A stretch of DNA of 64,000 bases, from positions 1 to 64,000 of IMG/VR virus record IMGVR_UViG_3300022671_000005; one strand, given 5' to 3'. The position numbers were made by a program, and so were the translations under genes. Below the pieces are notes generated by a model that saw only the letters and a list, made by a program, of their open reading frames with translations, did no database searches and was not told where the DNA came from. The stretch is from a virus (Duplodnaviria; Caudoviricetes). The number at the start of each line of letters is the position of its first letter. Within the stretch, counting starts at the first letter, position 1. This document shows, in pieces, positions 8,016 to 8,431 of this stretch.

Positions 8016-8042
8016 AAACATACAAATAAGGAGAAACAAATG
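8016..8042 (+). repeat. 27-bp translation-initiation leader, copy 2
   Basis: identical to 3843-3869. Confidence 0.85.
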
Positions 8043-8144
8043 ACAAATCAGAAACCATTGAAAGATCGTGGAGTTAAAAACAACTCCGTCAAAAAGAACA
8101 CCGTTAAAAGAAATTCTCTCAACAATAAAAAGTTGAAGAAGTAA
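8040..8144 (+). CDS. 34-aa highly basic peptide (not in ORF track)
   Basis: AAGGAG SD; MTNQKPLKDRGVKNNSVKKNTVKRNSLNNKKLKK with three VKxN(S/T) units. Confidence 0.65.
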   Translation: MTNQKPLKDRGVKNNSVKKNTVKRNSLNNKKLKK

Positions 8145-8176
8145 ACTAACTACCAAATTTAATAAGGATACTGATA

Positions 8177-8341
8177 ATGGCAGTCAGCAAAAACAACCCA
8201 AATGCCAGAAAGTCCAACTCTGGTGTATCAATTCGTGTATGCGAAATCTGTGGAAAAGAAGGTGAACTTGGAAAAGAGGTAGAACGAGTTAGACGTAAAA
8301 AGGCATTCGTGTGGAAGTGTCGCGATAAACATTACGACTGA
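8177..8341 (+). CDS. 54-aa basic zinc-ribbon protein (not in ORF track)
   Basis: AAGGA SD; MAVSKNNPNARK...CEICG...WKCRDKHYD. Confidence 0.7.
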   Translation: MAVSKNNPNARKSNSGVSIRVCEICGKEGELGKEVERVRRKKAFVWKCRDKHYD

Positions 8342-8355
8342 TAAGTCAGTCTAAC

Positions 8356-8431
8356 ACTCCGGTAGTTCAGTAGGAAGAACAACGCACTTCTAATGCGTAT
8401 GTCCCTGGTTCAAATCCAGGTCGGAGTGCCA
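8356..8431 (+). tRNA. tRNA-Arg (anticodon UCU)
   Basis: acceptor ACTCCGG/TCGGAGT, anticodon arm ACGCA-CTTCTAA-TGCGT, T-loop GTTCAAATC, encoded CCA, 76 nt. Confidence 0.95.

Follow-up and report, generated by a model that had tools for sequence, protein, structure and literature searches.

The conserved and meaningful part of the locus described here appears to be the gene that encodes a basic zinc-ribbon protein of 54 aa, together with the stable-RNA gene that lies behind it. The 54-aa ORF (P0001) is a real gene under selection and the founder of a previously undescribed protein family, the SKNNP family, which, going by the members found, seems to be confined to uncultured large phages. The linkage of the family gene to stable-RNA genes recurs across lineages, and the protein appears to be genomically, and probably transcriptionally, coupled to the tRNA and tmRNA genes of these phages. 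In this reduced form, the initial reading of the locus as a translation-control module still stands. Because the family gene is repeatedly located just upstream of tRNA or tmRNA genes, both here and in distant relatives, the protein probably acts in translation. The explanation we favour, tentatively and at somewhat less than an even chance, is a small stable-RNA region encoding a conserved, small and basic zinc-ribbon protein that would bind RNA or ribosomes.

The DNA analyzed (hereafter the window) is a 64-kb stretch that forms the start of a 142-kb IMG/VR virus record, estimated to be ~55% complete (CheckV) and with a GC content of 35%. The 142-kb fragment appears to originate from an uncultured and very distant phiKZ-like jumbo phage. 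The large proteins of the contig have only distant matches to phiKZ-like jumbo-phage families, including a 1002-aa virion protein with 25% identity to proteins of Xanthomonas and Pseudomonas jumbo phages, and the window also codes for topoisomerase II subunits, a GroEL-like protein, and a DNA polymerase. No close relatives of the phage were found among the GenBank phages (megablast, tblastn) or in IMG/VR when searched with P0001, its neighbors, and sub-alignment A3. The genes near the 54-aa gene likewise concern RNA or nucleotides: downstream of the tRNA, and with the same orientation, come those for a macro-domain protein and a predicted exoribonuclease. The coordinates of all features discussed are collected in Table 1, which also lists a short Cys-rich ORF upstream of the locus.

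Table 1. Features of the window, recurrences of the 23S-like 16-mer in other phage loci, and surroundings of the SKNNP-family gene in related loci. Positions are those of the window unless a locus is named.
Feature	Position	Strand	Remarks
Cys-rich ORF, 58 aa	7065-7241		nine Cys in ~25 residues; other frame, overlaps the start of a 204-aa ORF
Structured intergenic RNA	7923-8011	+	outer 8-bp stem around inner hairpin 7961-7990
Initiation region of the 34-aa ORF	8005-8042	+	38 nt; SD AAGGAG 8028-8033, 6-nt spacer, ATG 8040
Lys/Asn-rich ORF, 34 aa	8040-8144	+	orphan; pI 11.4; stop ends at 8144; 15-nt repeat, 2.3 copies, at 8076-8109 (TRF)
Basic zinc-ribbon protein gene, 54 aa, SKNNP family (P0001)	8177-8341	+	~20 homologues; SD AAGGA 8164-8168, 8-nt spacer, ATG 8177; stop ends at 8341
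6-bp palindromic hairpin	8336-8351	+	across the stop codon, directly 5' of the tRNA; read from the sequence, listed inverted repeat
tRNA-Arg(UCU)	8356-8431	+	encoded CCA; ARAGORN; Rfam RF00005, 66.3 bits
Macro-domain protein and Rv2179c-like 3'-5' exoribonuclease	9034-10281	+	phrog_335, E 2e-54; PF16473, E 1e-7; 3' of the tRNA
Strong terminator-like hairpin	9521-9556		between the macro-domain and exoribonuclease genes
16-mer recurrence	L042:14830-14845		
16-mer recurrence	L041:971-986		
16-mer recurrence	L047:175-190		
16-mer recurrence	L048:145-160		
Family locus L020/L021			protein 51-56% identical; tRNA-Arg(UCU) 16 nt after stop; tRNA-Ser upstream
Family locus L022			tRNA 8 nt after stop; seven more tRNAs upstream
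Family locus L033-35			12 kb with 18 tRNAs, the closest one 57 nt upstream
Family locus L037			20 tRNAs; nearest 54 nt downstream
Family locus L036			predicted order: promoter-like site, family gene, two small ORFs, tmRNA (Rfam 115 bits), terminator
Family locus L040			tmRNA ~1 kb downstream
Family locus L029			tRNA-Ile ~470 nt upstream
Family locus L025-27			start of an RNA ligase gene (PF09414, E 3e-12) 8 nt past the stop; no stable-RNA gene in 6-9 kb at L025
Family locus L038/L039			HD_4 gene upstream; no stable-RNA gene in 6-9 kb at L038
Family locus L023/L024			no RNA gene; only 1.2 kb spanned
Family locus L019			no RNA gene; 0.4 kb spanned; ends in a terminator

The initial annotation of this stretch had described a 34-aa Lys/Asn peptide with three VKxN(S/T) units, a 54-aa CxxC...C...H ORF, a Shine-Dalgarno sequence in front of each, and a tRNA-Arg(UCU) starting 15 nt further on, and all of these elements were recovered. 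The two ORFs differ in their conservation. Run exhaustively against 1.8 billion representative proteins, HMMER returned eight small homologues of P0001 (E 3e-12 to 3.5e-4), and a profile search brought together 20 family members of 52-59 aa (E 1e-7 to 1e-22). Eleven columns are invariant throughout the family (S4, K5, N6, N7, P8, C22, C25, G26, R37, W46, and C48) and two more, R20 and K49, are almost so. The putative metal ligands of P0001 are C22, C25, C48, and H52; the fourth ligand is His in eight of the 20 members and Cys in the remaining 12, and some members have a 4-residue insertion. Every member is strongly basic, with a pI of 9.5-10.1 and a net charge of +5.5 to +9.5. A metagenome scan added only two further ORFs, in which an SKNNP(N/D)AR N-terminus is found on different Cys-rich modules, a hint that the tail may be a functional unit of its own.

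Metagenomes are the source of all family members. The family was absent from 50,697 GenBank phage records, from 185,579 species genomes (GTDB), and from IMG/VR apart from the present record, and Pfam, PHROGs, and NCBIfam returned nothing above threshold for the 54-aa protein. No paper describing the family was found in the literature, nor were any fused or longer forms found, the latter being weak evidence. The 54-aa protein is present in a public protein collection from which the 34-aa peptide is absent.

The genomic surroundings of the family gene were surveyed in the DNA of 12 non-redundant loci, including the window. A tRNA or tmRNA gene lies within ~1 kb of the family gene in eight of the 12 loci, which are not phylogenetically independent and amount to only ~7 lineages, as L033 and L037 share neighbors and L036 and L040 do likewise. 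In five loci a tRNA is found at 8-57 nt from the family gene, and at two others (L036 and L040) the family gene opens a predicted tmRNA operon. As a rough control, tRNAs occur in only two of 16 phage loci of 12 kb that were retrieved via the neighboring macro-domain gene, and none of these 16 loci was syntenic with the window. The protein-coding neighbors vary by lineage (APS kinase and RNA ligase; HD_4; HNH and radical SAM; NADAR and HSP20), while the stable-RNA neighbor persists. The identity of the adjacent tRNA varies as well (Arg, Gly-like, Met, Lys), which leaves no specific protein-tRNA pairing. Of the gene order in the initial annotation, the zinc-ribbon gene followed by a tRNA is conserved in relatives; the 34-aa peptide is absent from every related locus.

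Two properties of the stable RNAs in these phages should be recorded in their own right. The phage tmRNAs at L036:1213-1584 and L040:2153-2542 (Rfam 115 bits) carry the tags ANTELPVAA and ANTELVAA, respectively. Several family-bearing phages (L037:1480-5436; L022:250-1562; L033:4668-5944) possess paired isoacceptor tRNAs, one of normal length (75-78 nt) and a larger one (85-92 nt) whose variable arm forms a long hairpin. The long-arm isoacceptors belong to Asp, Pro, Gly, Asn, Glu, Lys, Met, and Cys, amino acids that normally use short-arm tRNAs.

Within the window, the stop codon of the 54-aa gene and the tRNA are separated by a 14-nt gap, and no terminator-like site was detected on the + strand between position 7900, ahead of the leader, and the tRNA at 8356-8431. 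With all elements on the same strand, co-transcription of the leader, the ORFs, and the tRNA, as had been proposed for this unit, is plausible. Any function of the palindromic hairpin across the stop codon is putative. The tRNA-Arg(UCU) is the only tRNA that ARAGORN detects on the 142-kb contig, and in 97 long ORFs 54% of the Arg codons are AGA; as the tRNA reads AGA, the main Arg codon of the phage, it fits an ordinary role in codon supply. The tRNA region of T4 includes the small stable RNAs C/D. The layout of T4-type regions, in which a tRNA and small ORFs lie on one strand with no intervening promoter or terminator, is also found here and at L020, L022, and L036. The likeness extends to the packing of tRNA, small ORFs, and structured non-coding RNA into what is apparently one transcript and to a phage tRNA that matches phage codon use (PMC2330249). 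In contrast to the T4-type region, with its several tRNAs, small ORFs, and SegB, there is a single tRNA here, and the small ORF belongs to a conserved family that accompanies stable-RNA genes, including tmRNA, across unrelated neighborhoods.

Small ORFs are known to accumulate in the tRNA islands of large phages, such that linkage between the family gene and a tRNA may reflect location and not function. Under this alternative, which we regard as unlikely while giving it appreciable weight, the protein would have no relation to translation, serving instead in DNA binding, as a transcription factor, as an anti-defence inhibitor, or as a virion component, and would merely reside in a hypervariable tRNA island. 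The turnover of protein-coding neighbors between lineages, the family loci that have no stable RNAs, and the generic nature of the fold matches (treble-clef and zinc ribbons, including FYVE, the thymidine-kinase lasso, and nuclease zinc fingers) are consistent with such a passenger, as is the precedent of T4-type tRNA regions, which harbor unrelated small ORFs and homing endonucleases (PMC2330249). Three observations argue against a passenger: the 54-aa gene directly adjoins the sole tRNA of a 142-kb contig, the spacing of 8-57 nt is kept in five loci despite changing protein-coding neighbors, and two members of the family head tmRNA operons rather than tRNA islands.

In sequence and in fold, the closest resemblances of the protein are to RNA-binding ribosomal zinc ribbons, all of them below threshold. 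An AlphaFold2 model built on the family alignment (pLDDT 76) combines a short helix with a ribbon of three to four strands. The most consistent likeness is to the N-terminal domain of ribosomal protein eL24 or the related TRASH domain, although the scores are below threshold and membership in either family is not assigned. The best sequence match in the PDB is an archaeal eL24 (8hku; E 0.003, 20.8 bits), a sub-threshold match over the zinc ribbon. Likewise, the L24e model NF034186 matched three of the 20 family members (best E 0.001) and the TRASH model PF08394 matched one of the 20 (best E 0.0022), both below threshold and suggestive. Ribbons of the eL24/TRASH type have the signature Cx2C-x19-22-C-x3-C, and P0001 has the corresponding spacing (C22-x2-C25-x22-C48-x3-H52), with a Gly after the second Cys and an aromatic residue before the third. 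Set against this, the SKNNP family has an invariant N-terminal SKNNP tail of its own, and eL24 is an archaeal and eukaryotic protein while this phage uses bacterial signals (Shine-Dalgarno sites, with tmRNA in its relatives).

Structure comparison with the eL24 N-domain gave an rmsd of ~2.1-2.4 Å over 37-38 residues (Z 2.0-2.2), and FYVE and eS27-like ribbons performed equally well. Foldseek placed eL24 chains among its matches at E of at least 2.7 (at least 0.7 for all matches), and no significant fold match emerged from the PDB by Foldseek, from the VIA wide search (Z at most 3.2), or from the ESM Atlas. For the bacterial ribosomal proteins bL28, bL32, bL33, bL36, and bS14, Pfam gave no match to P0001 at E up to 1 and none among the 20 members at E up to 5; the NCBIfam L28 model, whose cut-off is 48.3 bits, reached 14.4, and the PDB matches to bL28 and bL33 had E of 0.03-5. 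Since most small zinc ribbons in the PDB belong to ribosomal proteins, the match list is biased toward them. The resemblance to small ribosomal proteins noted in the initial annotation persists as a weak likeness, best for eL24, that reaches no curated threshold.

Large aquatic phages are known to encode small, basic, partly zinc-binding ribosomal proteins (bS21, bL31, bL33, and others) that act on host ribosomes (PMC6375957, PMC9723584). The SKNNP-family proteins resemble these in being small, basic, and predicted zinc ribbons; they differ in that the virus-encoded ribosomal proteins are recognizable homologues of cellular proteins, while the SKNNP family matches no ribosomal-protein model at cut-off. 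By language-model features the nearest family is the TP_0214 zinc-finger-like family of the Spirochaetota (PF27208; 55-56 aa, score 0.91, 23 of 30 matches), which is likewise uncharacterized and thus adds no function; no paper on the function of TP_0214 was found in the literature. By analogy, we infer that the 54-aa protein may work like a small RNA-binding zinc ribbon.

A second alternative is a role in counter-defence, in which protein and tRNA would jointly neutralize a host nuclease that targets tRNAs. The tRNA would replace a host tRNA-Arg that has been cleaved, the protein would shield tRNAs or block the host nuclease, and elsewhere it would partner with a resealing RNA ligase. Macro, NADAR, and HD genes, which are typical of conflict systems, lie near members of the family, and in one lineage (L025-27) an RNA ligase gene directly follows the family gene. 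Phage tRNAs are, moreover, documented as decoys or replacements against anticodon nucleases (PMC10264068). This possibility is nonetheless quite improbable: AGA is the dominant Arg codon and plain codon supply explains the tRNA, and the kinase beside the ligase is an APS kinase, which leaves no complete repair module. To our knowledge there is also no nuclease partner for the protein-tRNA pair. It should be noted that the kinase at L025 was considered as a KTI12-like tRNA-repair kinase and rejected; with its identification as an APS kinase (E 1e-44) and not a polynucleotide kinase, the idea of a repair module was dropped.

The 34-aa ORF has a different standing. It is probably translated, a judgement held with modest confidence, because a complete duplicated ribosome-binding site is present. 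Its 38-nt initiation region, comprising the Shine-Dalgarno sequence, spacer, and ATG, is a near-copy of positions 3832-3869, in front of a 596-aa gene that starts at 3867; the two share 88% identity over ~42 nt and are the sole such pair in 142 kb. The arrangement of AAGGAG, 5-9 nt, and ATG occurs 21 times in 142 kb and opens ORFs of at least 60 aa in 17 cases, and beside the 34-aa ORF the three other exceptions are ORFs of 1-21 codons. Its codon-frame score is not discriminating, as 24-29% of open frames that are spurious or random equal it. No homologue of the peptide was found in the related loci, in the phage itself, or in a collection of 15 billion proteins, and the related loci have unrelated ORFs or a promoter region where it would sit. 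These comparisons speak against a conserved unit of two peptides. The 34-aa ORF appears to be lineage-specific, may have arisen when an initiation region was duplicated, and is perhaps no more than an upstream or leader ORF.

The structured RNA ahead of both ORFs is the second element on which the earlier account relied. Its inner hairpin carries in the loop a 16-mer (7968-7983) that is identical to the conserved sequence of 23S rRNA helix 13 and has one exact occurrence in the window; the closing stem differs from that of the rRNA. The region 7905-8040 folds at -27 kcal/mol (z -2.5 against shuffles; inner hairpin z -2.2), and the 7923-8011 element has no match in Rfam. A scan of IMG/VR gave 19 exact copies of the 16-mer, which by our own rough estimate is about the chance expectation for a sequence of this length; five are true 23S fragments and approximately ten are GC-rich and seemingly random. 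In four AT-rich phage loci of two lineages (L042, L041, and L047/L048), the 16-mer again forms a hairpin loop, with differing closing stems. The hairpin of L042 lies 25 nt after a tRNA-His, and those of L041 and L047/L048 lie inside ~160-nt tRNA-like RNAs with an acceptor stem, D arm, and T arm, which neither ARAGORN nor Rfam calls. This last location suggests a free-standing RNA module, and the hairpin looks like such a module of phage tRNA regions and unlike a cis-regulatory site for the 54-aa protein. It could represent an rRNA decoy that recurs as a module in these regions. Separately, the tRNA cluster of L042 contains two tandem CTA-anticodon tRNAs at 7865-8019 (amber suppressors; ARAGORN 'Pyl'), which suggests stop-codon recoding in that phage.

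Leaders of ribosomal-protein operons (L1, S8, and L20 type) mimic the rRNA binding sites of their products. The present hairpin resembles these in being identical to rRNA and lying in the 5' region of an mRNA for small basic proteins, but leader and 54-aa gene do not travel together in relatives. At up to three mismatches, the 16-mer is absent from the 11 related family loci, whose upstream regions have no common element, and no SKNNP-family gene occurs in the phage loci that carry the hairpin; this comparison speaks against autoregulation through the leader. The model of the initial annotation, in which two ribosomal-protein-like peptides would modulate host ribosomes and, by binding the rRNA-mimic leader, repress the mRNA that encodes them, can draw on the exact 16-nt helix-13 sequence and on a basic protein with weak eL24, bL28, and eL43 similarities (one member is auto-named L37AE/L43A by JGI), but it is very improbable given the separate occurrence of hairpin and family gene, a 34-aa peptide with no homologue, and ribosomal-protein HMM scores that are all below cut-off. 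The second peptide and the rRNA-mimic feedback, the eye-catching parts of that account, should not be built upon.

Under the favored stable-RNA reading, the structured RNA, a short upstream ORF, the 54-aa gene, and the single tRNA-Arg(UCU) would form one rightward transcription unit, with the mRNA and the tRNA made as a single precursor that 5' processing of the tRNA would cut 14 nt past the stop codon. In the strongly basic protein, the ribbon and the invariant SKNNP tail at the N-terminus would bind RNA, and the target would be either the ribosome or the phage tRNA or tmRNA, mature or as precursors. The effect would be that the translation RNAs of the phage itself are matured, protected, or used. 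A more far-reaching version, which is doubtful as a whole, would make the SKNNP proteins a new class of phage translation factor, produced from a precursor shared with the tRNA or tmRNA. With the tail and an eL24-like ribbon, these factors would attach to those RNAs or to the host ribosome, would secure the use of the phage tRNA and tmRNA or protect them from tRNA-directed defences, and with the helix-13 decoy hairpin would constitute a toolkit against host translation.

The roles of the tRNA and tmRNA genes of large phages are debated between codon supply and escape from tRNA-cleaving defences. Absent as it is from cultured phages and curated databases, the SKNNP family is missed by annotation pipelines. 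The protein is easily expressed, and its size suits NMR, or cryo-EM on ribosomes. A conserved protein of ~55 residues that travels with RNA genes through unrelated neighborhoods is a concrete candidate for a protein that partners with the stable RNAs of phages.
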